Shown here piece after piece: positions 2,652 to 64,000 of a stretch of DNA of 64,000 bases; the first letter of the stretch is position 1; every line of letters begins with the position of its first letter. The translations under genes and the position numbers were made by a program. The notes below the pieces were generated by a model. It ran no database searches. It worked only from the letters and a program-made list of their open reading frames with translations, and had not been told where the DNA came from. The stretch lies in IMG/VR virus record IMGVR_UViG_3300023178_000006. One strand, written 5' to 3'. The DNA is from a virus. Lineage: Duplodnaviria; Caudoviricetes.

Positions 2652-3563
2652 ATGAAAAACTTTAAAGATGTTCTCTCAGAAATCGCCCAACCAAAAAGTG
2701 GCGATGAGAAAAAGTTTAAAGACTTACATAAAATAGAATTAATCAAGCACCCAGTAGCACCTGATAATCAGTTTACTGGAGAGATTGATGGTGTGGAAAG
2801 GAAGGCAAGACCTGCTGACCAAGATGGCGATAAGAATTACGACCCACATCTCGATAAGAAAGATAAGCCATTTAAATTACCAAGAGATACAGGTGGTGGT
2901 GCATTAAGAAAAGAGAATACTGAAGTTTCTTTTAAAGATTTAATGAACAAAATCACATCAGAGGAAGACCTTCTTGAAAGTCCCCAAGAAGAAATTCCAA
3001 TGATGATGAAACAGCTTCATTATATTTGCTATGCTTGTGAAGACTTAATGGAATTCTTAGCAACTGACGAAATTGACCCAGAAGAATGGTGGCAAAATAA
3101 GTTGGCTCAAGTATTTGGTAACGTTAAATCATTACACGCTTATGCAAAAGGTAGTGAAAAAGCAGCTGAAGCAGAAAAAGACATTGACCTAGGTAGTGAT
3201 GATGTTGAAGAACAATATGAAAGTATTGATGAAGAAATAGCAGAACTTCTTCATGAAGAAAAATGTTCATGTTGTGGAAACGAAATTACTAAAGACGGAT
3301 GTGGATGCGATGAAGATTGCCCACACTGTGGTGGAAAGGGAAAAGTAGATGAAGCAGTCCAAGTTAAACCAATCAGGGCTGGGCAGTTGGTATTAGGTAA
3401 CAGAAAAAGAGTTTCTGTAAAACCTCAAGATGCAAAGTTATTAGACAAGATGTTTAAGACTTTAAGAGATAAAAAGAACAAGGAAGAAATGTACGAACTT
3501 TTAATGAGTAATGAAAGAGGGTACAACGAAATATTAGACTTTGCTAAAAAAGCAGGTATATAA
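2652..3563 (+). CDS. Probable head-internal/prohead-associated protein with Cys-rich segment
   Basis: Lies between gp20 and gp21; N-terminus MKNFKDVLSE; internal CSCCG...CGCDEDCPHCGG. Confidence 0.6.
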   Translation: MKNFKDVLSEIAQPKSGDEKKFKDLHKIELIKHPVAPDNQFTGEIDGVERKARPADQDGDKNYDPHLDKKDKPFKLPRDTGGGALRKENTEVSFKDLMNKITSEEDLLESPQEEIPMMMKQLHYICYACEDLMEFLATDEIDPEEWWQNKLAQVFGNVKSLHAYAKGSEKAAEAEKDIDLGSDDVEEQYESIDEEIAELLHEEKCSCCGNEITKDGCGCDEDCPHCGGKGKVDEAVQVKPIRAGQLVLGNRKRVSVKPQDAKLLDKMFKTLRDKKNKEEMYELLMSNERGYNEILDFAKKAGI

Positions 3564-3841: not shown

Positions 3842-4525
3842 ATGAAATTAATTACTGAAGTTAACGAAACTTGCGAAGTATTAACCGAAGCTAAAGAGGA
3901 CGGAAAAAAGTCTTACTTTATCGAAGGTATCTTCATGCAAGGCGACATTAAAAATCGCAACGGAAGAATTTATCCATGCGACACTTTAGAGAATGAAATG
4001 AATCGTTATAACGAGCAATTCATTGAATCTAAAAGAGCGCTTGGTGAACTAGGACATCCTGACGGTCCTACGATTAACGGAGACCGTGTTTCTCATTTGA
4101 TAACTAATATGAAACGCGAAGGTAATGATTTTTACGGTAAAGCAAAAATCTTATCAACTCCAATGGGTGAGATTGTCAAAACTTTCATAGACGAGGGAGT
4201 TAAAATTGGCGTTTCAACAAGAGGTTTAGGCTCGGTAAAACAATTGAAGGATGGCGTTATGGAAGTTCAAAAAGATTTCCATTTAGCGACAGTGGACATT
4301 GTAACTGACCCTTCAGCTCCTAATGCTTTTGTAAATGGTATTATGGAGAATAGAGAGTATTACTACGACATCGCTTCTGCGTCTTGGAGAGCTCAGGAAG
4401 TAACTGAGGTAATCGAAGAGATTGTTGAAGAAGTTGAGAAAAAAATCAACCGAGTGGTACGTAAAATTGATGAAGAAACGGCAGCAAGAATGTTTAGTAC
4501 ATTCGTTCGTTCTTTGAGAAAATAA
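3842..4525 (+). CDS. gp21: Prohead protease
   Basis: IEGIFMQGDIKNRNGRIYP, ALGELGHP, GVSTRGLGS and DIVTDPSAPNAFV. Confidence 0.97.
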   Translation: MKLITEVNETCEVLTEAKEDGKKSYFIEGIFMQGDIKNRNGRIYPCDTLENEMNRYNEQFIESKRALGELGHPDGPTINGDRVSHLITNMKREGNDFYGKAKILSTPMGEIVKTFIDEGVKIGVSTRGLGSVKQLKDGVMEVQKDFHLATVDIVTDPSAPNAFVNGIMENREYYYDIASASWRAQEVTEVIEEIVEEVEKKINRVVRKIDEETAARMFSTFVRSLRK

Positions 4526-5643: not shown

Positions 5644-6972
5644 ATGTCAAACTATCAACAACTCGTGGAAAAGTGGGAGCCAATTTTAGAGCACGACTCT
5701 TTTTCACCAATTAGCGATCAACATAGGAAAGCAGTAACAGCTACTATCCTAGAGAACACAGAAAGAGCACTTTCTGAAACAGGTGACTTGTCTGCAAACA
5801 TGACAAGCCTTCTTTCAGAAGCACCTACCAACGATGCTGGTACAGGTGGTTTCTCTGCAAGTGTATCTCCAGGAAATGCAGCAGCTGGTCCAACAGCTGG
5901 TTATGACCCTATCTTGATTTCATTAGTACGTAGAGCTATTCCTAACCTAATCGCTTACGATATCTGTGGTGTTCAGCCAATGACTGGCCCAACAGGTTTA
6001 ATCTTCGCGATGAGAGCACGTTACGGTTCTCAAGGTGGTGCGGAAGCTTTATATGCTGAAGCCGATACCGACTTTGGTGGTACTGGTACACACGCAAATA
6101 CTTTGCCAAACGCTAATACAACGCTTATTACAACTGGTACAGGTATGGACACAGCAGCGGCTGAAGCTTTAGGCGACGGTCAAGGTACAAACTTCGCAGA
6201 AATGGCATTCTCTATTGAGAAAGTTACTGTTGCTGCTAAGACACGTGCTTTAAAAGCTGAATACACAACTGAACTTGCTCAAGACTTAAGAGCAGTCCAC
6301 GGCCTAGACGCTGAAACAGAATTGGCTAACATTCTTCAATCTGAAATCTTAACAGAAATCAACCGTGAAGTTGTTAGAACAATCTACAAAACAGCTGAAG
6401 TAGGTGGTGACAATACTGCTGCTTCTGGAGTATTCGACTTAGACGTTGATGCAAACGGAAGATGGTCAGTTGAGAAGTTCAAAGGCTTAATGTTCCAAAT
6501 CGAACAAGAAGCTAACGCTATCGCAAAAGGAACTCGTAGAGGGAAAGGTAACATCGTTATTTGTTCTTCAGACGTAGCTTCTGCATTGCAAATGGCTGGT
6601 GTATTGGATTACGCTCCTGCCTTAAACTCTAACTCTTTAGAAGTTGATGACACAGGTAATACTTTTGCTGGTGTTCTTAACGGAAGATTCAGAGTATACG
6701 TTGACCCATTCGCAGGCGGCAACTACTTAGTAGTTGGTTATAAGGGTTCATCTGCATTTGATGCAGGTTTATTCTACTGCCCATACGTTCCTTTACAAAT
6801 GGTTCGTGCGGTTGGTGAGAACAGCTTCCAACCAAAAATTGGATTCAAGACTCGTTACGGAATGGTTGCAAACCCATTCGCTGAAGGTGACGTTTCTAAC
6901 CAAGGTTTGGGTGCTCTTACTCAAGACGTCAACAAGTACTACAGAAAAATTAGAGTCACAAACTTATTCTAA
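5644..6972 (+). CDS. gp23: Major capsid protein
   Basis: DPILISLVRR, GVQPMTGPTGLIFAMR, KTRALKAEYT and FQPKIGFKTRYG. Confidence 0.98.
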   Translation: MSNYQQLVEKWEPILEHDSFSPISDQHRKAVTATILENTERALSETGDLSANMTSLLSEAPTNDAGTGGFSASVSPGNAAAGPTAGYDPILISLVRRAIPNLIAYDICGVQPMTGPTGLIFAMRARYGSQGGAEALYAEADTDFGGTGTHANTLPNANTTLITTGTGMDTAAAEALGDGQGTNFAEMAFSIEKVTVAAKTRALKAEYTTELAQDLRAVHGLDAETELANILQSEILTEINREVVRTIYKTAEVGGDNTAASGVFDLDVDANGRWSVEKFKGLMFQIEQEANAIAKGTRRGKGNIVICSSDVASALQMAGVLDYAPALNSNSLEVDDTGNTFAGVLNGRFRVYVDPFAGGNYLVVGYKGSSAFDAGLFYCPYVPLQMVRAVGENSFQPKIGFKTRYGMVANPFAEGDVSNQGLGALTQDVNKYYRKIRVTNLF

Positions 6973-36812: not shown

Positions 36813-37370
36813 TCATTCTTGACGGTAAAATATATGAGTTCCTATCGTTCCTACTTGTTGTAATGTAGGAGCCCAATAAGGACTTACCCATGTCGTGTGA
36901 TAATGTGTTGCACCTTCTGTTAATCCACGGTACTTATTATTTTTAATAACATGATAAGCGATGTTAAGTGATTCATTCCAAGAGTCAGTATCAAGTGGGT
37001 CATCACTCTTACCATCACAATACCAACTAAACTGACATGCATTCCTTATTGGTACGAGCCTCTCTGGGTCTTTCCAAGAAGGTTTGTGCTTCCCTTGGTA
37101 TATTACACCACATATATCATTAGGGTACCTGTCGTCTCTTACTCTATTTAAAACAACATCAGCAACTGCATATTTACCTGCTAAGTTTTCTGAACGTGAT
37201 TCGTGATAAATGTTTAATGCTAGACAATGTTCTTCTTTTGATACTACCCAATCGTAATCAATACCAGGCTCAGCTTTCACTTCACTTGACCATAATATAA
37301 AAATCATGAATATAAGGGTCACGTATAGAGGACTCATATTTAAATGAAAGTTTTTATCGAATTTGCTCAT
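36813..37370 (-). CDS. SleB-like cell wall hydrolase
   Basis: CLALNIYHESRSE, AVADVVLNRV, CQFSWYCDG and GATHYH. Confidence 0.9.
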   Translation of the reverse strand: MSKFDKNFHLNMSPLYVTLIFMIFILWSSEVKAEPGIDYDWVVSKEEHCLALNIYHESRSENLAGKYAVADVVLNRVRDDRYPNDICGVIYQGKHKPSWKDPERLVPIRNACQFSWYCDGKSDDPLDTDSWNESLNIAYHVIKNNKYRGLTEGATHYHTTWVSPYWAPTLQQVGTIGTHIFYRQE

Positions 37371-50821: not shown

Positions 50822-50850
50822 ATTATACCACAAGGATACTGAAATGTCAA
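50822..50850 (-). promoter_or_regulatory. Sigma70-type promoter upstream of primase
   Basis: TTGACA-N17-TATAAT. Confidence 0.85.
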
Positions 50851-50853
50851 CCG

Positions 50854-51480
50854 TTATTTTACGGTTTTGACTCTACCCGTTTTAGGGTCTACTAGATATG
50901 CGAAATATTCGACTTCAGGAAATTCTTTCTTAAGGCTTAGAAGAGCTTTTAAGTTATCTAAATGGTCATCAAACAGACGTATTCTTCCATACTCTCCTGT
51001 CTTTAGATACTTTCGAAACACCACTTTCTTATTTTCAGCAGCGTTTCTTCCACCAAGATTACCAGCACGCTCAACATATACACCTTCTCTACGATTTCCT
51101 AAAGGTATTCCGTGAGCTTCAAACGTTTTCATAAAGAGATTCTTATCGTCCATGTCAGCACGTGCTGTAACAATAATAACTCTACTACCAGTTTTCGTGG
51201 CATTCTTTATGATAGCTTTTGCTTTTTGGATTATTTTTCCGATAGGTGTTGCGGTTTGATAGAATATTTTTGACGATTTAAATTCACCGTAGTCCCATTC
51301 CTCACCAGACTTTAATTTATAATCGTTATATTCTTTAGGAGTAAGAGATTTAACCTGTTTGGTTTTCTTATTAAGAACACGTACACGAGCTTTAGATACA
51401 AACATCGTATCATCGACGTCAAAGATTGTCAATCCTTTCGAACCTCTTTTCTCTATCAAATATTCTTCGAATCTTTTCAT
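50854..51480 (-). CDS. HAD-superfamily protein with capsid-targeting-like N-terminus
   Basis: MKRFEEYLIE, then IFDVDDT, IIVTAR and LFDD. Confidence 0.75.
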   Translation of the reverse strand: MKRFEEYLIEKRGSKGLTIFDVDDTMFVSKARVRVLNKKTKQVKSLTPKEYNDYKLKSGEEWDYGEFKSSKIFYQTATPIGKIIQKAKAIIKNATKTGSRVIIVTARADMDDKNLFMKTFEAHGIPLGNRREGVYVERAGNLGGRNAAENKKVVFRKYLKTGEYGRIRLFDDHLDNLKALLSLKKEFPEVEYFAYLVDPKTGRVKTVK

Positions 51481-51490
51481 ATCATGTACT

Positions 51491-51519
51491 ATTATATACT
51501 AGTTTTATTGAATTGTCAA
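51491..51519 (-). promoter_or_regulatory. Sigma70-type promoter
   Basis: TTGACA-N17-TATAAT. Confidence 0.82.
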
Positions 51520-52055
51520 CTGTTTAGATGAAACATTGATACGTCTAAGAATTGCACTATGAAAGTGATAACTGCTATAGCACCTATCAACCACCATTTT
51601 AAGTTCTCAATATTTCTTATTCTTTCTTCTTGTCCGTCAACTTTTTCGTTTAAATCTTTTGCAATATTTTCGATGAGTCGTATTGTTTCTCTATGTCTAT
51701 CTTCATGCCATTCACGACTACGTTCATTTACTTCTGCGTGTTTATTTCTTGCGTCTTCCATTGCTCTTACCATATCTGTTTTAAAATTCTGTTTATGGTC
51801 ATCTAGTTCTTCTTTCAGCGCAAATCGAGCTTCAACGTTAATACGAGCTTGAGTATCTATCTTTTCTTCTAGGTAATCGAGTTTCTGGTCAAATCTTTCT
51901 ATGATTTGTTGTTGCACAGCCATGCCTTTCGACAAGTCTGAAATCTCGTCTATAACTCCATCAACTTTATCAAAAAATCTTTCGATTTGTTTGAGGTCAT
52001 TTTTTATGAGGGCTATATCTGTTTTGATGTGGTTTACAGTATCGTCTGACACCAT
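51516..52055 (-). CDS. Coiled-coil protein with C-terminal TM helix (possible holin/lysis-associated)
   Basis: Heptad-rich body ending in LKWWLIGAIAVITFIVQF; next to spanins. Confidence 0.55.
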   Translation of the reverse strand: MVSDDTVNHIKTDIALIKNDLKQIERFFDKVDGVIDEISDLSKGMAVQQQIIERFDQKLDYLEEKIDTQARINVEARFALKEELDDHKQNFKTDMVRAMEDARNKHAEVNERSREWHEDRHRETIRLIENIAKDLNEKVDGQEERIRNIENLKWWLIGAIAVITFIVQFLDVSMFHLNS

Positions 52056-52152
52056 GCCTCCAAGTTTTATAAGTTAATTAAACAACTAGCGCATGATTTA
52101 CAATAGTATTTATCCACAGGATTTCCTACTGTCAACATTGGAGAGAAATTAA

Positions 52153-52689
52153 TTAATCTTTTTTCTGAAACTCAGCGCCGACTGCTTGTTCATCATTTAT
52201 GGTTACATTGCGGTAGTACACGACCACCTCTCCGAGTTCACGTATGTACCTACGAAGCTCTTGCATGTTTCCACTCATTAGTTCATAATCCTTTATAGTC
52301 GTTGCAACGAAGAGGGTGTCTCCTCCATTTGCCGCTTTGATGTCATCTATGAATTTATCAAAATAAGTGTAACCGACTGGCCAATCTGGGTTTTCTCTAT
52401 CTTCTAAAGAACATTCTTTGGGACGTTTTAATGTCTCTACACCTTCATCATTAAATCGAGGTGGGTCGAAAGGAATCGACCTCTTACATGGATTAACAAT
52501 TACCGCCTCAGAAACTACGTACCATTTAGGCTCTTCGAGTTCTATAGGTCTTGGTAATGTTGGTTGAATGATTTGAATTTGAACTGGTTTACTAACTATC
52601 TCGACTTCTTTAGTAAAGAAACCGCCTAATGTAGAACAACCACTAATTAGAAGGAGTGCCAGAGAGCTCGCTAATAGCTTTACTGTCAT
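52153..52689 (-). CDS. Probable o-spanin (lipoprotein)
   Basis: Lipobox ISG-C, Pro-rich segment; start overlaps the i-spanin 3' end. Confidence 0.7.
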   Translation of the reverse strand: MTVKLLASSLALLLISGCSTLGGFFTKEVEIVSKPVQIQIIQPTLPRPIELEEPKWYVVSEAVIVNPCKRSIPFDPPRFNDEGVETLKRPKECSLEDRENPDWPVGYTYFDKFIDDIKAANGGDTLFVATTIKDYELMSGNMQELRRYIRELGEVVVYYRNVTINDEQAVGAEFQKKD

Positions 52690-53026
52690 TTTCAATCTCC
52701 TCAAATACTGCTTTGGTTTCGTTATTCACTCGAGTCTCAATCAAGCCCGGCTTCATCAGCGCGAGCTTGTCGAGATTATGTCTTCTGAAAATATCGAGAT
52801 AACGGTCTTTTTCTGCCTCTATTTCGGCAGTCCTACGAGATAGGTCATTAAGAGCTTGACCTTGTTTCTCATAAGATTCTTTCATTGCGTTGAATGCAGC
52901 AGCTTGCTCTTCAATCGCACTTTCAAGTTTGACATTATTTTCTTTTAATGTCTGGTTCTCATTAAAAAGCCAATAACTCGTACCACCAAGTACGAGTATC
53001 AATGTTAAAAATATCTGGTTAAACAC
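52643..53026 (-). CDS. Probable i-spanin
   Basis: N-terminal TM helix, long coiled coil, KPGLIETRVN. Confidence 0.7.
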   Translation of the reverse strand: MFNQIFLTLILVLGGTSYWLFNENQTLKENNVKLESAIEEQAAAFNAMKESYEKQGQALNDLSRRTAEIEAEKDRYLDIFRRHNLDKLALMKPGLIETRVNNETKAVFEEIENDSKAISELSGTPSN

Positions 53027-53029
53027 AGA

Positions 53030-53557
53030 TTATTCTTCGTCCTTGACTTCGTATCCTGCAGCCTTTGCTAACTTAGGATGTATATCAGCTGCTTCTTCTT
53101 CATCATTATGATAATGATTTACAGCAAACTTCCATAAGTCTTTTGCATCACCAGATACATCGGCAGTGTCGTCACCGGTCTTCTTAATTTTAATTCTATA
53201 TTTCTTTTCGGCGTCAGCTTTATGTTTGTCATCACCAATATAGTCGATATCGATTACTTCTTCACTTAACACGTGAGACCAATCAATCGTTATTGTGTGC
53301 TCGCTAACTTTTTTTTTAGCTTTAGACTCTTCTTCGTCAGACTCGTCTTCGTCCTCATCTTCCTCTTCGTCAGATTCGTCCTCGTCCTCGTCTTCCTCAT
53401 CTTCGTCTTCGTCTTCTTTGACTTTGCCTTCAGTCATTTCTTTGTACTTTTCTTCTAAAGAAGCGCGAATTCTAGAATTCATTTCCTCTTCAAAAGCCTC
53501 TTTCATTTTAAGAGGATTGTTATCAATTGCTTCCGCAATTATTTTTTCAATAGACAT
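53030..53557 (-). CDS. Probable prohead core/internal protein with acidic tract
   Basis: AIDNNPLKMKEAFEEEM N-terminus shared with 53572-54435; poly-D/E tract. Confidence 0.6.
   Translation of the reverse strand: MSIEKIIAEAIDNNPLKMKEAFEEEMNSRIRASLEEKYKEMTEGKVKEDEDEDEEDEDEDESDEEEDEDEDESDEEESKAKKKVSEHTITIDWSHVLSEEVIDIDYIGDDKHKADAEKKYRIKIKKTGDDTADVSGDAKDLWKFAVNHYHNDEEEAADIHPKLAKAAGYEVKDEE
53330..53415. repeat. Imperfect ~33-bp tandem duplication encoding an acidic tract
   Basis: EDEDEDESDEE occurs twice in the protein. Confidence 0.7.
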
Positions 53558-53571
53558 TACTATTCTCCTAT

Positions 53572-54435
53572 TTAAATTAACTTAGCTCTGTATGTAAAAC
53601 CCGAACCACCTGGTTGAATTATATCTTCTAATAAAGCGTTATAGTATAACACATCGTAACCAATGTTTTTATCATCGTCATCATCTGGACTCCAGTTGGT
53701 AACGTTTCCACCAGTCTTTATATGTGCACTTATACGTTTCGAAGTATAATCTGATAATTTAGTTCGGTAATCACATCTTTGTTGAATTTCTCTTAATCCG
53801 TCTTCATTTTCGAATGAACTAGGATATACAACTGTATCACCACCCTTATATTCTGGGTCTTCATCACCAGGGTCAAATCCTAGCATTTCATCTAAAGGTA
53901 CTTCACCTTCTTCATTCATAGCTTCCACTATCTTCTTAAGGTTTACTGCACCTGCAACTTGGATTGCAACTTGTTTCATGTCCTCTGGGTCTGGACCATC
54001 GTAATCATCAGAATCATCAGAACCAGAGTCATCAGCTGGTGATGCTTTGTCAGAATCAGGTGTTTCACCTTCATCATCATCTTTAGAATCAACATCAGAG
54101 AAAACCCTTGGGTGTTTCTTTTTTGCTTCTTCTTCATCACCATAATGTTTTGCTAAAAAGTCAGCAACCTTTTTATGGTCACCAGTTACAGCGGACTTTC
54201 CATCTTTGTTCGGGGCGCCAATCTTGATTCCATATTTTTCTGAATCAGATTCACGCTGCTTGTCACTACCTTTATATTCGATTTCCACTTTATCAGTGTC
54301 GACTGCTTCATTAATCCCGTTGTATGCTTCTTCTAAAGCAACACGAAGACGTGAAGTCATTTCGTCTTCAAAGGCTTCTTTCATCTTCAACGGATTGTTG
54401 TCAATCGCGTGTTGAATAATTTTATGTAATGACAT
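53572..54435 (-). CDS. Probable prohead core/internal protein, paralogue of 53030-53557
   Basis: AIDNNPLKMKEAFEDEM and a shared second domain ending HY...EEEA...HP. Confidence 0.6.
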   Translation of the reverse strand: MSLHKIIQHAIDNNPLKMKEAFEDEMTSRLRVALEEAYNGINEAVDTDKVEIEYKGSDKQRESDSEKYGIKIGAPNKDGKSAVTGDHKKVADFLAKHYGDEEEAKKKHPRVFSDVDSKDDDEGETPDSDKASPADDSGSDDSDDYDGPDPEDMKQVAIQVAGAVNLKKIVEAMNEEGEVPLDEMLGFDPGDEDPEYKGGDTVVYPSSFENEDGLREIQQRCDYRTKLSDYTSKRISAHIKTGGNVTNWSPDDDDDKNIGYDVLYYNALLEDIIQPGGSGFTYRAKLI

Positions 54436-54469
54436 TTTTATTCCTATAAATGCTTGTTTTGTTTATTTA

Positions 54470-54925
54470 TTAAACTTCTTCCATCCGTGACATGAGGCGC
54501 TCTGCTCTGTTTGTCACTTGACGATACCATTTGGAATCTCTACCTTCAACTGCGGCAGTTTTCCAATCACCTTCTAATAATGCAGCATTAAATTTTTTGA
54601 ATCCACTCAAACGAGTACGACCCATGTTAAACATCATGTTAACCAAGATTTGCTGGACTTCGCCGGGAAAGTCTCCAAAGTTCCCTTCTCCGTATAGAGC
54701 GTGACATTCTCCGAGGGCAATGTCAAAATCTCTGTCGAAACACGTCCTAACTCTTTCCTCACTAACTTCTGTACCAACTGGTTTTCCAAATTCCTCGTCA
54801 CTGTCGAGGATAAGATGACCGACTCCAAAAGTGGGATACCCGAGGTGGTCGTTATAGATGGCATAGACAACTCCTTCGTCGATTTTTAGTTGTTCGAATA
54901 CTGCTTCTTTATCTTCAATTTTCAT
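54470..54925 (-). CDS. Endolysin, GH24 T4-lysozyme-like
   Basis: LKIDEG...DHLGYPTFGVGHL, NMMFNMG and SKWYRQVTNRA. Confidence 0.9.
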   Translation of the reverse strand: MKIEDKEAVFEQLKIDEGVVYAIYNDHLGYPTFGVGHLILDSDEEFGKPVGTEVSEERVRTCFDRDFDIALGECHALYGEGNFGDFPGEVQQILVNMMFNMGRTRLSGFKKFNAALLEGDWKTAAVEGRDSKWYRQVTNRAERLMSRMEEV

Positions 54926-55607
54926 TTTCTGACATCCTTGACATAAAGTCAATAAAATTTTTCTTTTTATATTTACCTTGAGCTTTCTTAGACACGCCAG
55001 GTTCACCTGACGCACCTACACCCAAACCTGCAATAGCACCGCCACCGACTCCGGTGACTTCTTCAACATCGTCCATATATCCTTTTTCATTAAGCCATTT
55101 CTCAACTGCTTGTCTTATATCATAAGAAGATGAGTTTGCTGTTTTTAAATCGAGTAATAATTTACGAAGTTCTCCTTTATCATCTTTAGAAACTTTTTTC
55201 TTAGCTTCATCTAATTTGATTTCTTGTTCTTCGATAATGTCTGCATATTCCTCGACGAATCGATTCATAGCATTCTCAATATACTCTTCATCTATTTCAG
55301 CACTTTCAAAAAGAGTACCAGTTTTATTTTGGTATTCTTCAGATTCTTTAATTAACCAAAGTGCTGCAGCATAACTCGCTAACCTTGTTTGGCCGCCTGG
55401 TAATTTAGCTAGTAGTTTTTTAAGATTTAAAATAAGTTGGTCAAATATACCAAATGCTTTCCTTTGAGATGCTTTCGTAAAGTCACGTCGACGCACAAGT
55501 ATATTACCTTTTGCATCGATAATTCCTTCTTTAAAAGCAGCCCATTTATTAAAAGGCGTAACTAGCCTCTTAATAAAACTAAAAACTAAAAATAAATCAA
55601 CTACCAT
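54915..55607 (-). CDS. Hypothetical protein
   Basis: FIKRLVTPFNKWAAFKEGIIDAKG...YAAALWLIKE. Confidence 0.75.
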   Translation of the reverse strand: MVVDLFLVFSFIKRLVTPFNKWAAFKEGIIDAKGNILVRRRDFTKASQRKAFGIFDQLILNLKKLLAKLPGGQTRLASYAAALWLIKESEEYQNKTGTLFESAEIDEEYIENAMNRFVEEYADIIEEQEIKLDEAKKKVSKDDKGELRKLLLDLKTANSSSYDIRQAVEKWLNEKGYMDDVEEVTGVGGGAIAGLGVGASGEPGVSKKAQGKYKKKNFIDFMSRMSENEN

Positions 55608-55982
55608 TTAAATTCCTTTTAACCTCTCCATAATAAGCTCATCACTTATTATACTGTCAGCGTTGATACTAATATCATCGTATCCTATGACTGGTGGCAT
55701 AAAGTTTAAGTATTCAACAAAAGGTTTTAAATACTCGTGATACTCATGCAACCTCATAAACAACATATTAGTAGCAATTGGTCCAAACACATTGAATATT
55801 ACAATGAGATGGTTTAAAATCAACCTTTCTTTCAGTTCACCTTCTGCTCTGTATCGACTGAATAATTTTCTGAGGTATTGGAACCTCTTCATATCTTCTT
55901 CAAACTCTGACATCTCAGTACACTGAGGATTGTCATAATGCTTCATTGCATATAGCAGAAAGGTTGATTCTGTTAACTTCAT
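55608..55982 (-). CDS. Hypothetical protein
   Basis: FLLYAMKHYDNPQC...LKERLILNH. Confidence 0.8.
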   Translation of the reverse strand: MKLTESTFLLYAMKHYDNPQCTEMSEFEEDMKRFQYLRKLFSRYRAEGELKERLILNHLIVIFNVFGPIATNMLFMRLHEYHEYLKPFVEYLNFMPPVIGYDDISINADSIISDELIMERLKGI

Positions 55983-56012
55983 AATGAAAAAAGGTTTATG
56001 TTGTTGCTAATA

Positions 56013-56330
56013 TTAGCTGTCAGCTACGATTGTGTCTTCAACCGCTGTATTTCCTGTAACACCTAAGTCACCAGCATCAGATTGAGATACCTTCATTACT
56101 ACGATGTTTTCAGCTTTGTGACGCGTATTTCCATTTTGGTCTGTGTATGTGTTATACAAGTTCCAACCTGGAGTCTTAAGACCTTTTGCTCTGTTAGATG
56201 CAACACCTGCCTCTGTCAAGTCAACGAATACTGCGTTGTCTTTGTCGTGAGACTTATTAGTGTTATTTACATCGTCTTCGAGCCACTTAGGTATGCTGCC
56301 AGCAGCGTCTGTTTTTCCCCATAGTGCCAT
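56013..56330 (-). CDS. Probable structural protein
   Basis: MALWGKTD N-terminus; TPGW; RHKAE. Confidence 0.65.
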   Translation of the reverse strand: MALWGKTDAAGSIPKWLEDDVNNTNKSHDKDNAVFVDLTEAGVASNRAKGLKTPGWNLYNTYTDQNGNTRHKAENIVVMKVSQSDAGDLGVTGNTAVEDTIVADS

Positions 56331-56372
56331 TGTTATTCTCCTGTTTAATTTAACGTTAAATTATAACAAAAA

Positions 56373-56639
56373 TTACTTCAATGCTTCTTTTGAAGCTTTA
56401 TAAACTGTATCTACTAATTCAGCTTTTTTCTTTCTTTTATCAAGTTCGATACCGAGGACTCTACCTTCTTCCTCAAGCTGAGCTTTAGTTAATTTATTTA
56501 ATTTAGCTTTAGTAAAAGCGGGTGCCTTTTTAGGTGCAACCTTCTTCACAACTGGTTTCACAACCGGTTTTTCAACTTTCTTGTTTAAACCAAAAAAGTC
56601 TTTTAGCCATTCAATTAGTGCTTTCATAATATCTCCCAT
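56373..56639 (-). CDS. Small basic protein with Rho-N/HeH-like C-terminus
   Basis: LNKLTKAQLEEEGRVLGIELDKRKKKAELV. Confidence 0.65.
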   Translation of the reverse strand: MGDIMKALIEWLKDFFGLNKKVEKPVVKPVVKKVAPKKAPAFTKAKLNKLTKAQLEEEGRVLGIELDKRKKKAELVDTVYKASKEALK

Positions 56640-56670
56640 ATTTTTATTACTAATTAATTATATATTAAGA

Positions 56671-57411
56671 TTATCTTGGTGTCGGTTGACTCAAGATTCT
56701 ATCTTTTTCTGAATCAGAAATCTCTTTAGCTTTATCTCTATATCTTTCACCCTCGCCATAAGACATTCTGTCGTATCGAGCTTGACCACCAGCTAATGCA
56801 ATTGCAATTCTGTGATAATCATGAGAAGAATAGCCGTCTTTGCCTTTTTCTAATCCACCTTTGATGTGTTCATCAACTTTTTTTTTCACTTTAGCTTTTG
56901 CAGCTGATTTAAGATAATTAGCGTTTAAAGAATCGCATCCACCTTCTTTAACTTCTTCGCCGTCATCATCTTTACCTTCTTTATCTTTTGCGATGGCTTT
57001 CTTAATTGCTTTACGCTTCTTGTGTAGGTACTCATCTGAATCATCTACATCACCATCATTGTCGATATCTGCATCTGCTTGACCGACTGGGTCCATTTTC
57101 TTAGCTTCATCCTTTTGGTTTTTATATAATATAATACCTGCTTGAGGATGATAAACATCGTCTTTAACATCGTTAACTGTTTCAGCGTCCTCGTCTGCAC
57201 CTAAGTATTTTTTAGCATAAGAAACGATAGCTTTCTCATCACCTTGTAAAATTACTACGGCGCCAGGATTAGAACTCCCAATCTTTTTCATAGTAAAACC
57301 TTTCTTATCTGCGATTTTACCAGTGAAGTGGCTAACTTTTAAATTAGCTTCAACTAATGGTTTACGGACGGATGCTTCCATAAACATATCAATTTTATCT
57401 TTAAATGACAT
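56671..57411 (-). CDS. Probable head-internal modular protein
   Basis: MSFKDKIDMFME; KMDPVGQADADIDNDGDVDDSDEYL module. Confidence 0.6.
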   Translation of the reverse strand: MSFKDKIDMFMEASVRKPLVEANLKVSHFTGKIADKKGFTMKKIGSSNPGAVVILQGDEKAIVSYAKKYLGADEDAETVNDVKDDVYHPQAGIILYKNQKDEAKKMDPVGQADADIDNDGDVDDSDEYLHKKRKAIKKAIAKDKEGKDDDGEEVKEGGCDSLNANYLKSAAKAKVKKKVDEHIKGGLEKGKDGYSSHDYHRIAIALAGGQARYDRMSYGEGERYRDKAKEISDSEKDRILSQPTPR

Positions 57412-57439
57412 TTCAGTCTCCCTTATAAAATATTTTAAA

Positions 57440-57697
57440 CTATTTATCTTTTGGAGTTATCTTAATTATTAAATTATTAACTCCCTTTATTATTCTGTGG
57501 TACTCGTTTTCCTTAATCGTAAACTTCATACCAGGTTTTAATAACCAAGGTAATGCACCTTCCCATTGAAATTGCCAACCATCTCCTTCGAGAATTTCAA
57601 TTTCACGCGTTTCATTATCTCTATGCCAAACGAACTCTTCGTCTGGTTTATCAACAAAAAACACCCGACGGTCTTGCACGTCAAGGTAAGGATTCAT
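57440..57697 (-). CDS. Cupin-like small protein
   Basis: EFVWHRD...EILEG.GWQFQ...YHRIIKG. Confidence 0.7.
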   Translation of the reverse strand: MNPYLDVQDRRVFFVDKPDEEFVWHRDNETREIEILEGDGWQFQWEGALPWLLKPGMKFTIKENEYHRIIKGVNNLIIKITPKDK

Positions 57698-57708
57698 TCT
57701 TTGTTCCT

Positions 57709-57927
57709 CTATTTAATTAAACCAGCAATTAGCTTAACACCATCAATAATTTTCTGTGCTAAGATTTTGTTTTCTTCTAATTCTAAATCTGCATCTATCT
57801 TAGAAAGGTCAACTAAATCTTCTACTAATTCTTCGTATTCTGACTGATTTAAATCTCCGTCTTCTAAAAGACTTTTGTACTCAAGAACTTTTTGTTCTAT
57901 TTCAACTTGCCATACTTCTAAGCTCAT
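57709..57927 (-). CDS. Small acidic hypothetical protein
   Basis: 72 aa, coupled to the upstream lipoprotein. Confidence 0.7.
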   Translation of the reverse strand: MSLEVWQVEIEQKVLEYKSLLEDGDLNQSEYEELVEDLVDLSKIDADLELEENKILAQKIIDGVKLIAGLIK

Positions 57928-58310
57928 TTCCTATCTCCAAATGTTTCCAATGCTGTAGATGTTATATCATGTATGTTTGTTCTTTTAATCTTACAATATG
58001 CTTCGCTTGGTTCATCACGCTCTACTAACTCAGATGTTAATCCGTGAATACCAGCGTATATATCTACAATATTAGAATTTAATCTGTGTTCTGCATAAGT
58101 ATGCAAGTACATAGCTCTATAATTCATTTGACTTAATGTAGATTTAGTACACCAACTTGATTGAGGCATAATAGAAATCACATTTAATTCTACTAATTTG
58201 CCATATTCAACGTTATCAAATTCGCTAGGTAAATATTTACCTACGTTAGCACAACTACTTAATAATAATGCTAATGTTCCTATTAAAAAATATTTCATAG
58301 TGTTTACCAA
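57924..58310 (-). CDS. Lipoprotein
   Basis: Lipobox LSS-C after a hydrophobic signal. Confidence 0.75.
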   Translation of the reverse strand: MVNTMKYFLIGTLALLLSSCANVGKYLPSEFDNVEYGKLVELNVISIMPQSSWCTKSTLSQMNYRAMYLHTYAEHRLNSNIVDIYAGIHGLTSELVERDEPSEAYCKIKRTNIHDITSTALETFGDRK

Positions 58311-58684
58311 AAATATGAGCCGCCACCTTTAAGTCCTAATGATTTTGCGTATTTAGGCAATCTACATGCCCAATAACCAGGACTTAATTTATCTGTTTTT
58401 GTATCACAATTATGTCGAGCAGCGAATGACCTTGCAGCGTCTCTATCATTAATTTTAGAGGTCAACCCACCTTTCTCGTCACCGAATTGAATCTTCTTAA
58501 CATTACCTGTTTGAGGATTGCGTACATATACAACATACTTTTTATCACCAGAACTTCGCTTCGGTTTGTTTAGTTCTGGTTCTTTTTCTTCCTCAAACTC
58601 AATCATTGGTTGTTCTAAAGGAACTGTAACTCCTTCATACAAACCAAAGTTTGATTCATTTAAAAAATCATGAAATCCTTTCAT
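58304..58684 (-). CDS. Hypothetical protein with capsid-targeting-like N-terminus
   Basis: MKGFHDFLNE; KKYVVYV...FAARHNC...GYWAC. Confidence 0.75.
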   Translation of the reverse strand: MKGFHDFLNESNFGLYEGVTVPLEQPMIEFEEEKEPELNKPKRSSGDKKYVVYVRNPQTGNVKKIQFGDEKGGLTSKINDRDAARSFAARHNCDTKTDKLSPGYWACRLPKYAKSLGLKGGGSYFW

Positions 58685-60432
58685 TAGACTTTAATGCTCG
58701 CTCTCTTCAGAGATGCTAAGACGTTCTTAAATACTTTTTTGTCCATGTGAAGAACATCAGCCATACCTGTAATTGGAGCACCTTCTAAATTTTTTGGAAT
58801 AGAATTACCAGATGCAGTCATTGCTCCACCCTTTGATACTTTTCTATCCATTACGATAGCAACATCATTTCCGCTAACACATACTTTAAACTCAGGTGAT
58901 GCGAATACACACTTAAGATTAGAATCTGTGAGGCTGAAATTTTCTTCTAAATCTACACTTTCATCAACGCCAGCAGCCTTTTTAATCTGACTAATTTCGT
59001 CTCTTAATCTGTCAGCTAAAATTTCATGGTCTTTAATTTTCTGTCTCAGTTTACCAACTTTATCCTTGTCGGCATCACTTAATTTGGCGTTACCATATTT
59101 GTCTGTTAGCTTTTCTTCTAAACTTTCAGGTAGGGAAACTTTCTTAGCGCGTTTTCTCATTTTATCGAGTAAGTTACGTGCCATAGTTTTCATTCTACCT
59201 AATAAAGCTTTTTCTTCAAGTTCTTCCCAACCTTCGATTTGTGCTTCTTCTCTATAATCTTTACGAATATGTTGAATTGCTCTCCACAATTCTTCACGAG
59301 TCATTGTATCACCAGCACCAACATTAGAATATCTTGTCATGCTGAACATCTTTTCCATTTCGTTGTAAATAGCTTCGTTGTCTAATTTACTCTTTGCATA
59401 TTTTCTTAATTCGCGGTTTGCTTCAGCATTGAGCTTTGCATTTTCTCTTTCACTGTCTCCAATAAAAGCAAAGTAATAATCACCGTCATAGACTGGGTAT
59501 GATAGAGATAACCAAGACTTCTTCAACGCACTATTGTTATGATACTTTTTAAATGAATCTTCGTTATCAATAATCCATTGTTGTTCTTGCTTATTAACAC
59601 CTACTGCTCTTGCGTAATCTTCAATGGATTGTGGTTTTGACATTGCTGCTTCATTAATTGTTTCTTCATTTGTACCACAATATTGTGCATATAGTTCGTT
59701 GAATTTAGCTTCACTACAACCATATTTTTCTTTTATCTTTTCATACATTTCATGTTTAGCACAACCTGATGCATGAAGTTTTTGCATTTCTTTAACACAA
59801 GAACCTTCGTTATATTCTTGTAAACCTTTAATCTTTGGTAAACCATACCAATCGTAAGTAGCGAATCGAGCGATACTCTCTGCGGATTCTTTAATCTTTT
59901 CGTTATAAGCATAACCTTTTAAAGGCTCATCTGCTTTAACTCCAGCTGGTTTCTTTTTCTTTTTACCAACAGAAATATCATCAACTTCTACTTCAACTGT
60001 ATCTTTTTCTGACTCTTTTGTATTCTTTTTTAATACATTAGGACTTACTTCGTGAGTTTCATCACCGATACCAATTTTAACATAGTCTTTTCCATTTCCT
60101 AGTACCGTTGCTTTCTTCCCTTTGTATGTAACAGTTGAACGCTCAGGAAATTCAGAGGCAATCCTAGCGATATCTGATTTTAAACTTTCATCGATACATT
60201 GTTGTAATTCTTCTTTTGATTCAAATGGTACTTCTTTATAACCTTGACTCTTAAGGTCAGCAATCTTCTTCTCATTACCTTTACGCTTCATTGAAGCACG
60301 ATGATGTCCACTTGCATCGTCTTTAGCTAACTTAATATACAGGTGTCTATCCTTTTTAGGTGTAGACCATTTCTTGACTAAGTCGTCTCGGCCATAGAAT
60401 GAGCCTTCAGTATGTTGTTTGAAACTTTTCAT
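58684..60432 (-). CDS. Large modular probable head-internal protein
   Basis: Start MKSFKQHTE with GGAG-like site; modules bounded by IDE/INE/LEE. Confidence 0.7.
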   Translation of the reverse strand: MKSFKQHTEGSFYGRDDLVKKWSTPKKDRHLYIKLAKDDASGHHRASMKRKGNEKKIADLKSQGYKEVPFESKEELQQCIDESLKSDIARIASEFPERSTVTYKGKKATVLGNGKDYVKIGIGDETHEVSPNVLKKNTKESEKDTVEVEVDDISVGKKKKKPAGVKADEPLKGYAYNEKIKESAESIARFATYDWYGLPKIKGLQEYNEGSCVKEMQKLHASGCAKHEMYEKIKEKYGCSEAKFNELYAQYCGTNEETINEAAMSKPQSIEDYARAVGVNKQEQQWIIDNEDSFKKYHNNSALKKSWLSLSYPVYDGDYYFAFIGDSERENAKLNAEANRELRKYAKSKLDNEAIYNEMEKMFSMTRYSNVGAGDTMTREELWRAIQHIRKDYREEAQIEGWEELEEKALLGRMKTMARNLLDKMRKRAKKVSLPESLEEKLTDKYGNAKLSDADKDKVGKLRQKIKDHEILADRLRDEISQIKKAAGVDESVDLEENFSLTDSNLKCVFASPEFKVCVSGNDVAIVMDRKVSKGGAMTASGNSIPKNLEGAPITGMADVLHMDKKVFKNVLASLKRASIKV

Positions 60433-60439
60433 TTCCGTT

Positions 60440-61111
60440 CTATCCTCCGAATTCGTGTCCTGCAACACGTTTCATTTGTTTGTTAAATTCTTCTTGTGAA
60501 GGTTTGTCTTTATATAACTTAATTGTGAGGTGAGCTTTTTCTTTGCCCTTAATTCTCCAATTATAACCTTTCTCTTTATGTTCTGGTTTGGTTGTTTTTA
60601 CAACTCGTCTTTTATAACCTGCTTCCCAAGTTTCTGATTTCTTTTCTTCAAGCTCATTCTCTTCATTCTTTAATCGAGCATGACCTTTACGTTTAAAATC
60701 AGTTTCTACTTTTTTCTTAATTAAACTAGCAACCACATTAACATCGTGTAGTTTACCTTTTTGTAAATCGTCATTTAACTTACGACTTATTAATTTAAGT
60801 AAACTCGCAACGATTGCAGAATTTGATGCTGCTAAAGTTGCTTCATCTAAATCCTCACCCATAACCAGTGTCTGTAATTGAGAAATCATAGTGTTCAATA
60901 CTGGCAATGGAAGTGTTTGAAGAACCTGAGCCTGTTTAGACGTTAATCCTTTAATCTTACTTATTGCCTTCTTAATATCTATACGTTTTTCATCAAGGGT
61001 TTCTTCTGGTACACAATTAGGAACCATTTTCTTCCCTTTCTTTTTCATACCGACTTGTTTATAACCGTCCCAACAAGTCTTTTCGTATTGATATTCCAGA
61101 AAGCTTTTCAC
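60440..61111 (-). CDS. Modular probable head-internal protein
   Basis: MKSFLEYQYE; CWDGYKQVGMKKKGKKMVPNCVP module; LDE/LEE junctions. Confidence 0.7.
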   Translation of the reverse strand: MKSFLEYQYEKTCWDGYKQVGMKKKGKKMVPNCVPEETLDEKRIDIKKAISKIKGLTSKQAQVLQTLPLPVLNTMISQLQTLVMGEDLDEATLAASNSAIVASLLKLISRKLNDDLQKGKLHDVNVVASLIKKKVETDFKRKGHARLKNEENELEEKKSETWEAGYKRRVVKTTKPEHKEKGYNWRIKGKEKAHLTIKLYKDKPSQEEFNKQMKRVAGHEFGG

Positions 61112-63376
61112 TTATTTCTTTCCTTTTAAATCTCTTATTTGGTCTCTTATATCTTGGATTTTCATCATTTGCTTCTGTGCCAGTTCTTCTTGCTCATCAG
61201 CACGTCTTTCATTAGCTTCAACACCTGAGTGACCTTTTTTCCTTCCTTCCGAAGCAGCTTTTCTGTATTTACGTTCTGCCTCGTCGTGAACAGCTTGTTG
61301 ATTATAATGAAATTCTAATTTCTTTTTCAATCTTTCAAGTTCTGGTTCTTGTTTTGGTTTTGAGACTACTCTTGGTCCTTGGTTTCCATCGTTACTGTTA
61401 TCTCTATAACCAAAGTGCATACCACGAAGTCCCTCAAAGATTTTTTGTAACTTCATATACTCTCTGTCAATAACAAAATCTCTATCTACAGGAACAGTTC
61501 TCTTACCACCATTATATGTAAATGTAATTTTCTTATCGTCAGTTTCTGGTCTTATGATTTTTCCACCATTGCTTCGTATTTGTTTTTCTACTGTAGAAAC
61601 TGCAACTGCACCTTCCATTATTTCTTCATCGATAGCAAGGTCTTCATCAAATAAACCAGCATCTCTCATTTGTTTTTGAGCATCTCTTTTCGCTCTTGCA
61701 TCCCATTTAGCACTTGCCTTCTGTCTCTTTTCAGCGGCTTTCTTAATCATTAAATAACGTTTTGCTTTTTGGTCTGCAGTCATTGCTTCAGGTAATACGT
61801 CGAAATCGAAGTTTTCAGTAATACCATCATTGATATGTCTTCCTGCTTGGAGATTAGAGATTTGTCTTTGATACTTTTGAATATCTTTCTTTTTCTCTTG
61901 TGCCTTTTGTCTCCATTCATTACCTGTATGAGCACCGAACTTTTCATTACCTTGTGCTGCACTAGCTAATTTCTCGAATTTTCTAGCACGTTCTTGAGCG
62001 CGTTGGATTTTTTCTTTAATCTCTGCGATTTTTTCCATTGCTCTACCTCTATCACCAGAAGCATCTCTACGTCCTTCAGGAGTTTTAGCAAATCTTCTCT
62101 CATAAGATGATAGTGAACCTCTGTAGTATCCATCTTCTTCCATAAGAGCATCTACGATGTCACACTGATGTTCTTCATTCGCTCGTCTTAAAGCATCTGC
62201 AACTCGAGGATGTTTTTGTAAACCTTTTTTCAATCTTGAGATTTTTTGATAAGCTGCACTATAATTACCCTGCTTATATCTTGGGTCATTAGCAATACCT
62301 ATTGCCATTTTAATATCTTTAGATGTAATAGGACTATCGAAATCGTCTCTTTCTTTTTTCTTATCGAGTTTTGCTTGCGCAGTATTGACACCAGAAATTC
62401 TTTTATTTAACCTTGAGGCAGCGTCAGGATTGCCCTTCGTCATGTCGCCGGACGCTTTACCTGCGTCACTTGTTGCCTTCGCCACATATTTTCTTAGTTT
62501 ATCCTGTGAGATTTCATCTAAATTAGACTCTGGTAAAGACATAATAAATTTAGATACCTTTTGCTTAGGTCCTTCTACGGATATATCTAAACCGCCACTT
62601 CTTGATTTTTTACTGTGTGGTTGTAGCCCAGCTTTCTTAGCGAGTTGAACTGCGACTCTTGCTGTGTCTGCGTCCATATCCACTAACTGAAATTTTTCAT
62701 GACCTTCTTCTAATTCTTCACCAATACCAGCACCGCGGTATTTACTATGGAAACTACTACCAGGTTTTGCATAACTTCTTGCGAGTTGAATCTTATCTTT
62801 TTGGTCTTGTTTTGCAGTACTACCTAATCGAATATGTCTTGCGGCTGCTTGCATACAAGATTTTTCAGAACTGTAGATACCTAATTCTTTACCATCAACA
62901 GTACATTTCCATTTTCCACCTTGTGGAACTACTCTTACCTTTTTACCATCAATATTATACTCATTAGGTCTTATAGTTTTAGTTTGACTTGTTGGTTTTA
63001 ATTCTTCTTCTACTGGCTTTTCAGGTTGAGTTCTTTTAAGCCACTTTTGAATGTCTGTAAATTTACCAGAAATGTGGAGCAACCACATCTTATTACCTTT
63101 AACTTTTTCAGATTTTGCATCGAGATTCATTGCCATTGCTTTACGTTCAGCCTTTGCAGCATCTTGTAATGTTTCAAACTTAAATGATACTGTCATTTCT
63201 AATAGATTAATATTAGTATTGTCAGCTGCAATCTCTGATAAACCTTTCTTTTTCTTTAATGGTTGTTCAGCAGTTTTACCTTGACCAGGTGTGTCTGATG
63301 CAAGTTTATCTTTTGCTGAAGTGGTTCCCCAGAAACCTGCTCCATGCTCTTCGAATAAATTTTTAAATTTCTTCAT
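61112..63376 (-). CDS. 754-aa modular probable head-internal protein
   Basis: MKKFKNLFEE; basic modules separated by L/I-x-E linkers. Confidence 0.75.
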   Translation of the reverse strand: MKKFKNLFEEHGAGFWGTTSAKDKLASDTPGQGKTAEQPLKKKKGLSEIAADNTNINLLEMTVSFKFETLQDAAKAERKAMAMNLDAKSEKVKGNKMWLLHISGKFTDIQKWLKRTQPEKPVEEELKPTSQTKTIRPNEYNIDGKKVRVVPQGGKWKCTVDGKELGIYSSEKSCMQAAARHIRLGSTAKQDQKDKIQLARSYAKPGSSFHSKYRGAGIGEELEEGHEKFQLVDMDADTARVAVQLAKKAGLQPHSKKSRSGGLDISVEGPKQKVSKFIMSLPESNLDEISQDKLRKYVAKATSDAGKASGDMTKGNPDAASRLNKRISGVNTAQAKLDKKKERDDFDSPITSKDIKMAIGIANDPRYKQGNYSAAYQKISRLKKGLQKHPRVADALRRANEEHQCDIVDALMEEDGYYRGSLSSYERRFAKTPEGRRDASGDRGRAMEKIAEIKEKIQRAQERARKFEKLASAAQGNEKFGAHTGNEWRQKAQEKKKDIQKYQRQISNLQAGRHINDGITENFDFDVLPEAMTADQKAKRYLMIKKAAEKRQKASAKWDARAKRDAQKQMRDAGLFDEDLAIDEEIMEGAVAVSTVEKQIRSNGGKIIRPETDDKKITFTYNGGKRTVPVDRDFVIDREYMKLQKIFEGLRGMHFGYRDNSNDGNQGPRVVSKPKQEPELERLKKKLEFHYNQQAVHDEAERKYRKAASEGRKKGHSGVEANERRADEQEELAQKQMMKIQDIRDQIRDLKGKK

Positions 63377-64000
63377 TAGTCCTTACCTTTATGTTGTTTC
63401 CACAAATCCGCGTCTGTTGTTTTTTGTGTTTTACCCCCGGTGGCAAAACTATTAACTCTTGCCAATCCCCACTGAGTAGGAGTAGTTCCGGGTCTGTGAC
63501 CGGTTCTCCATGCAGCAACACCTCTATCGAATACTTTTTTAAGGATTCCATAAGGGATTCCAGTTTTTTCAGCCTTTTTCTTAAGAGATTTTTTAGGATT
63601 GCTTTCAAAGATGAAATCAAGTTCTTCCCCTATTTGCTCAAGTTCTTTAATTTTTGCACTACGTTCTGCTGCTATTTCTTCAGCTTTTTTATTAATTTTA
63701 AAACGTTTATCAACAACTACTGAACCATTACGTGCTAATAACATATGAGGTCTTTTCAAACCTGCTCTTTCGTAATTAGTTTCACCAAACATCTTTTTAA
63801 AATTTTTGGTGTGTTGACTTGGTTTTGTTTCTGCTGTAGCATCACCAGGTGCGGGTTGATATGCTTTAGGATTATCATCGTCCATCTTAGCTTGTTTCTT
63901 AAATTGAGCTTTACGTTTGTCAGCTGTTGACTTTGCTAACCCAGTGTGATATGTTGGGCCTTCATTCATGCGTTGTTCTAATGTATATTCTTTATATGAG
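63376..64000 (-). CDS. Probable head-associated protein, 5' truncated by window edge
   Basis: Frame is open to the edge (SYKEYTLEQR precedes the track Met); contains SLKKKAEKTGIPYGILKKVFDRGVAAW...QWGLARVNSF. Confidence 0.7.
   Translation of the reverse strand, partial: SYKEYTLEQRMNEGPTYHTGLAKSTADKRKAQFKKQAKMDDDNPKAYQPAPGDATAETKPSQHTKNFKKMFGETNYERAGLKRPHMLLARNGSVVVDKRFKINKKAEEIAAERSAKIKELEQIGEELDFIFESNPKKSLKKKAEKTGIPYGILKKVFDRGVAAWRTGHRPGTTPTQWGLARVNSFATGGKTQKTTDADLWKQHKGKD

Follow-up and report, generated by a model that had tools for sequence, protein, structure and literature searches.

The DNA analysed here is a stretch of 64,000 nucleotides (nt) from IMG/VR virus record IMGVR_UViG_3300023178_000006 (Duplodnaviria; Caudoviricetes), henceforth referred to as the window, which holds part of the genome of an uncultured marine T4-like myovirus. 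On its minus strand, from position 50,854 to the window end, lies a cluster of open reading frames (ORFs) with N-terminal peptides resembling the capsid targeting sequence (CTS) of phage T4, a textbook mechanism described mainly in T-even coliphages. Six leader-bearing ORFs fall within 50854-63376 on the minus strand, and one (start at 2652) lies in the head operon. Judged from these peptides and their surroundings, the leaders of this probable T4-type capsid-targeting system are real, statistically solid and conserved, with one miscalled member: seven of the eight leader peptides listed in the initial annotation are N-termini of real ORFs, and the eighth, SYKEYTLE at the window edge, is internal.

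A HAD-superfamily phosphatase of 208 amino acids (aa) is encoded at 50854..51480 (minus strand, as are all cluster features below); its leader is MKRFEEYLIE (51451-51480) and the mature isoelectric point (pI) is 9.9. The protein contains a DxDxT motif at residues 21-25 and is linked weakly to Pfam Acid_phosphat_B and to the PHROG polynucleotide kinase family (phosphatase part). Since the structural model is moderate (predicted local distance difference test score, pLDDT, 71) and its fold only weakly resembles that of class B acid phosphatases and of the phosphatase domain in T4 Pnkp (template-modelling score, TM, about 0.4), only the superfamily was assigned and not the substrate. Among the best 120 of 1629 homologous clusters of this family, nearly all begin MKKFNEFLAE (about 100), and one member begins MLKYQEFIEE. 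A perfect 12/12 sigma-70-type promoter (TTGACA-17-TATAAT) lies ahead of the HAD gene at 51491..51519 on the minus strand, implying that this one candidate cargo gene is transcribed early. A second promoter of the same perfect 12/12 form (TTGACA-17-TATAAT) is located ahead of the primase gene at 50822-50850 (minus strand).

Further into the cluster, a 246-aa protein (56671..57411) carries a DxDxDG-type acidic module behind the atypical leader MSFKDKIDMFME/A (57376-57411; a slash marks the junction here and below), and its ortholog begins MSFKEKIDMVME. Motifs of the late-promoter type nATAAATA are found near this gene at 57447, and also at 54470 and 52113 (minus strand). The 126-aa basic protein (58304..58684) has the leader MKGFHDFLNE (58655-58684) and a two-Cys module as its body. 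The 582-aa basic mosaic protein (58684..60432) opens with MKSFKQHTE (60406-60432), a weak match; its ATG is preceded by GGAGG 11 nt upstream, public gene calls agree on 582 aa, and an internal junction, ETINE/A, is located at 59650-59664. The 223-aa basic protein (60440..61111), with leader MKSFLEYQYE (61082-61111), uses a GTG start right after the upstream stop, and this start is needed because the conserved CW module that follows the leader (CWxGYK..VPNCV) lies upstream of the next Met. Its junction NELEE/K (60644-60658) precedes a module that bears its own leader in a relative. The 754-aa protein (61112..63376), a basic, Lys/Glu-rich mosaic with leader MKKFKNLFEE (63347-63376), has an ortholog that begins MKKLTDLINE/SGAGFWGT. 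After leader removal, the five clear-leader cluster proteins have a pI of 8.6-9.9 and about 20% Lys+Arg, while the weak-leader 246-aa protein is neutral (pI 7.2). No pairwise BLAST hits were obtained among the leader-bearing proteins of the window, in agreement with their earlier description as otherwise unrelated.

The ORF at the window edge (63376..64000) represents the C-terminal 207 aa of an 801-aa protein. Its true start, MSQTFQEFLD, lies 1.8 kb past the window end, with a TATAAATA late promoter ~50 nt ahead of it, likewise outside the window. The extension was made via public-assembly contigs 99.8-99.9% identical to the window, found by an identity look-up of the 754-aa protein; an exact-match search for the window end in IMG/VR and JGI metagenome contigs returned no match. 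In these contigs SYKEYTLE/Q (63976-63999) corresponds to residues 594-601 of the 801-aa protein, and SYKEYTLE was rejected as an N-terminal signal. The complete protein consists of a leader, a cytidylyltransferase/NMNAT-like domain, a basic region and DUF5824, with a further junction, LDFIFE/S, at 63604-63621. The initial annotation had given the set no assigned functions. That description does not hold for the HAD phosphatase or for the edge protein, a cytidylyltransferase/NMNAT-like enzyme fused to DUF5824, nor for a P-loop kinase and a DUF6267 protein with a similar leader encoded just outside the window.

The T4 internal proteins (IPs) IPII and IPIII begin MKTYQEFIAE and IPI begins MKTFKEF, and the 10-residue CTS is removed by the protease gp21 after Glu (PMC9026906); the initial annotation had correctly given the MKTYQEFIAE type and its removal by gp21. 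The CTS of IPI, IPII and IPIII and the Alt propeptide, all removed by gp21, were described by Mullaney and Black 1996 and are covered in the reviews PMC9026906 and PMC3012670. A peptide of ten residues is enough for loading; targeting depends on positions 4 and 7, as mapped in IPIII, and processing on positions 8 and 10, and Asp at position 10 stops processing while loading is unaffected (PMC9026906). In the T4 sequence itself, IPI begins MKTFKEFTS... with a propeptide of 19 residues, and Alt begins MELITELFDE. The window leaders carry Phe at position 4 in six of the seven N-terminal cases. At position 7, five of the seven have Y, F, Y, L or V and MKSFKQHTE has His, while MSFKDKIDMFME does not align in this register. 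Clean Leu/Ile-8 together with Glu-10 is found in MKRFEEYLIE, MKGFHDFLNE and MKNFKDVLSE, and in MKKFKNLFEE if read LFE/E, and P3 is Gln or His in two leaders (MKSFLEYQYE and MKSFKQHTE). By this comparison MSFKDKIDMFME and MKSFKQHTE are only weak fits to the T4 pattern.

Enrichment of the motif in N-termini over background, proposed earlier as a check, is strong. A strict regular expression, ^MK.[FY].[ED][FY][IL].E, was built only from T4 IPII and IPIII with conservative residue classes; it matches 2 of the 106 called N-termini against 2e-4 (0.0002) expected (Poisson P about 2e-8). A looser expression, picked after the data were seen, matches 5 of 106 N-termini against 0.08 expected, and none of 465 internal Mets. 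By a T4-weighted score (mean 1.9, standard deviation 1.8), the 208-, 126-, 223- and 303-aa ORFs reach 7.5-8.5, and the 754-aa ORF ranks fifth with 5.5. No ORF outside the cluster or head operon scores at least 6, the highest being gp23 (5.25) and the ORF at 11512-11829 (5.0), and high leader scores are confined in the same way in the 137-kb contig of a relative.

Synonymous codons vary between leaders, and conservation is therefore at the peptide level. A set of 60 different leaders collected across the phage group yields the consensus M-K-x-F-x-E/D-F/Y-L/I-x-E, and relatives include near-T4 forms such as MKTFKEFKNINE, whose first seven residues are those of IPI, and MKTFREFLEE. Orthologs retain the leader while their bodies diverge.

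The plus strand of the window encodes the tail sheath, tail tube, portal (Pfam Portal_T4), a 303-aa ORF, a 79-aa ORF, a gp21-type protease, a gp22 scaffold (T4_CASP) and gp23. The gp21-type prohead protease (3842..4525, plus strand; Pfam Peptidase_S77, E 2.7e-36) is 41% identical to T4 gp21 and retains the GELxHP and SxRGLGS motifs; from this homology it is the enzyme expected to remove the leaders. In the major capsid protein gp23 (5644..6972, plus strand; 37% identity to T4 gp23), the predicted maturation site LLSE/A (5806-5820) aligns in register with FLTE/A, the known T4 maturation site, and the hydrophobic-x-Glu specificity has therefore likely been kept. Among cultured phages the capsid protein reaches a top identity of 65% (Sinorhizobium phiM12/phiN3) and is ~62% identical to those of Melnitz, pelagiphage HTVC008M and cyanophages.

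The leader-bearing ORF of the head operon (2652..3563, plus strand; leader MKNFKDVLSE, 2652-2681) encodes an acidic, Cys-rich 303-aa protein (pI 4.9), and the ortholog in a relative begins MKNFKDILSE. It sits between portal gp20 and protease gp21, the place of T4 gp67/gp68, with a TATAAATA late promoter ahead of it at 2610-2617. The protein contains a DnaJ-type CxxCxGxG zinc-finger-like stretch and has 9 Cys, and the leader-bearing gp186 of cyanophage Syn9 has a Cys-rich stretch resembling it. T4 internal proteins are basic and T4 core proteins acidic. Acidity (pI 4.3-4.9) is shared by the 303-aa protein and a pair of acidic paralogs within the cluster, of 175 and 287 aa (53030-53557 and 53572-54435, minus strand; pI 4.3-4.4), which have no CTS-type leader. 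The paralogs have MSxxKIIxxAIDNNPLKMKEAF... N-termini and Asp/Glu-rich tails, and relatives carry versions of 78-85 aa. A profile alignment with T4 gp67 (hhalign, E 3.7e-4, probability 36%) placed 30 columns in register, and BLASTP of T4 gp67 against the paralogs was not significant; by this profile likeness, the products of 53030..54435 appear to resemble the T4 gp67 prohead core protein. A similar 61-aa ORF lies between portal and protease in Melnitz. The 303-aa protein, which had been counted among the possibly injected cargo, is more probably a prohead-core component, given its acidity and its position in the head operon.

Pfam and PHROGs gave no match for the 582-, 754- or 303-aa proteins or the gp67-like pair, and a PDB sequence search gave nothing useful for the HAD, 801-aa and DUF6267 proteins. 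Against cultured phages, neither megablast of the cluster nor tblastn of the HAD and 582-aa proteins gave a match. A protein-atlas look-up of the 126-aa protein returned unnamed viral clusters only.

Modules of the cluster proteins shuffle between proteins, with their own leader in one phage and inside a larger protein in another. Gene 18 of the cultured methylophage Melnitz (650 aa) joins in a single chain a nucleotidyltransferase, a CWxxxK..VPNCV module, DUF5824 and the module of the 126-aa protein; in the present phage these modules are spread over three leader-bearing ORFs, the 801-aa protein holding the nucleotidyltransferase and DUF5824. Of 19 non-redundant junctions, 17 are of the hydrophobic-x-Glu type, compared with 19% of 10-residue windows taken at random from these proteins, a statistic that ignores shared ancestry. 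Ahead of the nucleotidyltransferase, for example, Melnitz has IIE/A where others have VDE/A, VTE/A, LDE/A or LKE/A; ahead of the WEDGYKRR module FITE/G is found versus LDE/G or LSE/G, and ahead of the 126-aa module FLNE/S versus ELLE/G. The 126-aa module occurs in 3250 clusters in a search of 1.8 billion representative proteins, almost always C-terminally and in proteins of 80-1053 aa, many of which open with a leader followed directly by a nucleotidyltransferase. Because modules inside the larger proteins are separated by the same hydrophobic-x-Glu site, these are probably polyproteins, and the pattern suggests that the larger mosaic proteins are cleavable. Many large mosaic homologues of the 126-aa protein show a second N-terminal class, MxRL[RN]SLIKE/VLS followed by KKKDC, with Leu at positions 4 and 7, which is closer to the T4 Alt propeptide than to the IP type.

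Extension with the near-identical contigs showed that the cluster occupies the interval between helicase gp41 and primase gp61. Immediately after gp41 lies a TATAAATA late promoter, followed beyond the window end by a 461-aa ORF (start MKNFSDFRSE), the P-loop kinase (Zeta_toxin/AAA_33; start MYKRFETWRESIEE) and the DUF6267 protein (start MITFKQYLSE/A). A 302-aa ORF and several leaderless DNA or sugar modification genes come next, then a second TATAAATA promoter and the genes for the 801-, 754-, 223-, 582- and 126-aa proteins. These are followed by small conserved genes, one of them in a PHROG named 'head protein', by DUF7207, lysozyme, the two acidic gp67-like paralogs and spanins, and by the HAD gene and primase. 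The lysis genes inside the cluster (T4 e-like lysozyme, i-spanin and o-spanin) map to 52153-53026 and 54470-54925 (minus strand). Across the phage, about nine clear and two or three weak leaders were tallied, plus the head-operon ORF. The 461-aa protein, kinase, DUF6267 protein, HAD phosphatase and nucleotidyltransferase together resemble a set of enzymes that might act on nucleotides or RNA ends.

The gp41-gp61 interval is hyperplastic, its gene content varying among 24 related IMG/VR contigs, Melnitz and cyanophages (Syn9). In the same interval, Melnitz carries the leaders MQGFKTFLSE, MKKFSELTSELIE, MKKFSEIIE/A and MKNFKNHIAE, and Syn9 carries MKKFSAFLSE/A (gp184) and MLTFKQLSE (gp186). In T4, gene 61.1 (NC_000866 18966-19130, minus strand), annotated as a 'hypothetical protein' of 54 aa and located just ahead of primase gene 61, begins MKTFKEFIKE, a perfect CTS, in a position syntenic with the window cluster; no statement on this gene was found in the literature searched.

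Evidence from virions is available for related cyanophages. ORFs 89, 90, 91, 92, 93, 95 and 97 of S-SCSM1 are given as virion proteins by mass spectrometry both in its GenBank record and in the paper (PMC9602691), and all seven lie between helicase and primase, syntenic with the cluster described here. ORF91 (NMNAT), which starts MKSFLQFLKE/A, shares 41% identity with the nucleotidyltransferase domain of the 801-aa protein, and ORF89 begins MDSKTFNSLSE/A. ORF93 (36627-36836; 69 aa), also present in virions, has a leader-like C-terminal end, ...RTFKEFLEYIE, and its body corresponds to a module that, in IMG/VR relatives, comes after the leader MLTFSDYLGE. Virions of S-CREM2 contain a cytidylyltransferase (ORF154), and the authors report 'frequent detection' of cytidylyltransferases and kinases in cyanophage virions, allowing for contamination (PMC10665884). 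These virion enzymes share with the present system a homologous nucleotidyltransferase domain, the gp41-gp61 interval and the same leader type; unlike them, the NMNAT-like version of this phage is fused to a basic region and DUF5824. Neither the S-SCSM1 (PMC9602691) nor the S-CREM2 (PMC10665884) paper mentions a leader or loading mechanism, neither the Melnitz paper nor a separate 26-genome comparison mentions a targeting sequence, and the literature searches turned up no CTS reported for marine T4-like phages.

Taken as sequence evidence, the leaders and their context point to a T4-type head-loading system that this phage quite probably uses, and packaging of the leader-bearing proteins is likely. 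For this phage we infer docking, cleavage and injection along T4 lines. The ~10-residue N-terminal leader would dock the protein onto the assembling scaffolding core, after which the gp21-type prohead protease would cut behind the leader Glu. The mature, mostly basic protein would then remain in the head alongside the DNA and would probably be ejected into the host. The tagged genes would make up the fast-changing gp41-gp61 cluster, mostly under T4-type late promoters, and their cargo would comprise enzymes (HAD, NMNAT-like, P-loop kinase and DUF6267) and mosaic proteins of short modules. The larger proteins are probably polyproteins, which the protease would divide up within the head.

Several observations weigh against this interpretation. 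The perfect sigma-70 promoter of the HAD gene is of the early type. MKSFKQHTE has His both at position 7 and at P3, MKSFLEYQYE carries Gln at P3, and MSFKDKIDMFME has no aromatic residue at position 4. The leader of the 801-aa protein, MSQTFQEFLD, terminates in Asp, and Asp-10 blocks processing in T4; yet LDE/A is present at residue 19, comparable to the 19-residue propeptide of IPI. Some relatives have a 126-aa ortholog with the shortened leader MKRFNE/S and one module occurs in relatives as a leaderless ORF (MSGAGDWGT), so that not every module requires a leader. In addition to the shared ancestry behind the junction statistic, the ELLE preceding the 126-aa module could belong to the domain instead of being a cleavage site.

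The same leaders could be propeptides of prohead-core or scaffold-type components that are cut up and expelled before DNA packaging, in which case the proteins would be assembly factors and not delivered cargo. Such a role would suit the 303-aa protein and the two gp67-like paralogs, which are acidic like T4 core proteins. T4 gp67, gp68 and gp22 are likewise processed by prohead protease gp21 (PMC9026906), and the many hydrophobic-x-Glu sites in the large proteins might be used for degradation just as well as for release. However, the proteins of the cluster are basic, with folded enzymes among them, mature, caesium chloride (CsCl)-purified virions of S-SCSM1 contain the NMNAT-like homologue and its neighbours, and the CTS-bearing IPs and Alt of T4 remain in the head. 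Expulsion of the whole set as core components is accordingly judged improbable.

A shared N-terminus might also reflect no targeting at all and instead mark a translation-start or recombination cassette, for instance a favourable 5' coding sequence or a shuffling hotspot. MK is a common start (16 of the 106 window ORFs), the cluster is highly mosaic, and the boundary between leader and body is where shuffling occurs, but the amino-acid conservation is position-specific while codons differ, and hydrophobic-x-Glu also appears at internal junctions that have no translation start. The motif is moreover limited to basic cluster proteins, save the acidic 303-aa protein, in a phage that bears gp21, and it matches functionally mapped T4 residues, which makes a cassette very unlikely. 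Hardly any weight is given to a leader that sends the proteins elsewhere (membrane, periplasm, or tail/baseplate assembly) or marks them for regulated degradation. The lysozyme and spanins in the same cluster and the early transcription of the HAD gene would be in keeping with another destination, whereas the leader is amphipathic and charged with no signal-peptide features, genuine lipoprotein signals encoded in the cluster are of quite another appearance, such a use has no known precedent, and the match to the T4 CTS is close.

The proposed head-loading system agrees with the T4 CTS in its ~10-residue N-terminal peptide with largely the same key positions and mostly a Glu end, carried by unrelated and mostly basic proteins. 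As in T4, a gp21 homologue is encoded, the cleavage site of gp23 is kept, the tagged genes lie in a hypervariable locus, and a lysozyme gene is close to the tagged genes (T4 ipII and ipIII adjoin gene e). It differs in its predicted cargo, which comprises HAD, nucleotidyltransferase, kinase and DUF6267 enzymes, in the large mosaic proteins with internal sites of the leader type, and in the location of the locus between gp41 and gp61; identity of the major capsid protein to that of T4 is only 37%. The predicted cargo set is indeed larger than that of T4, as had been proposed, although modestly so (about 10-12 tagged genes versus 4-7). Comparable features are known in the giant phages phiKZ, 201phi2-1 and SPN3US, in which many head proteins are cut after Glu at short motifs, propeptides contain several sites, and large protein sets are packaged and ejected (PMC9026906, PMC5694885). 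The giant phages, however, have a diverged gp21-type protease with an S/A-x-E motif (small P3) and no MKxF leader (PMC9026906, PMC5694885), and their proteins form an ordered inner body, in contrast to the hydrophobic-x-Glu sites of the ordinary-sized T4-like myovirus studied here.

A more far-reaching and rather doubtful possibility is that abundant pelagiphage-, methylophage- and cyanophage-type myoviruses of the ocean bring a ready-made set of enzymes along with their DNA. NMNAT-like, P-loop kinase, HAD and DUF6267 enzymes would be supplied as CTS-tagged polyproteins cut by the head protease and would be active during the first seconds of infection, for instance by restoring NAD+ or nucleotide pools or by repairing RNA against host defences; T4 gene 61.1 would then be a relic.

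Beyond the known T4 system, the findings add conserved predicted cut-site linkers, probable enzyme cargo and a link to virion proteomics. A nearly identical peptide has been kept in marine T4-like phages despite a capsid protein only 37% identical to that of T4, which offers a sequence-based prediction of the packaged protein set for some of the sea's most abundant viruses. Leader loading probably explains the enzymes found inside the particles of related ocean phages, and it offers a mechanism for the unexplained, repeated occurrence of NMNAT-like cytidylyltransferases and kinases in cyanophage virion proteomes. Hosts of the SAR11, OM43 or cyanobacterium type are those that the tagged enzymes, as candidates, might manipulate at the immediate-early stage.

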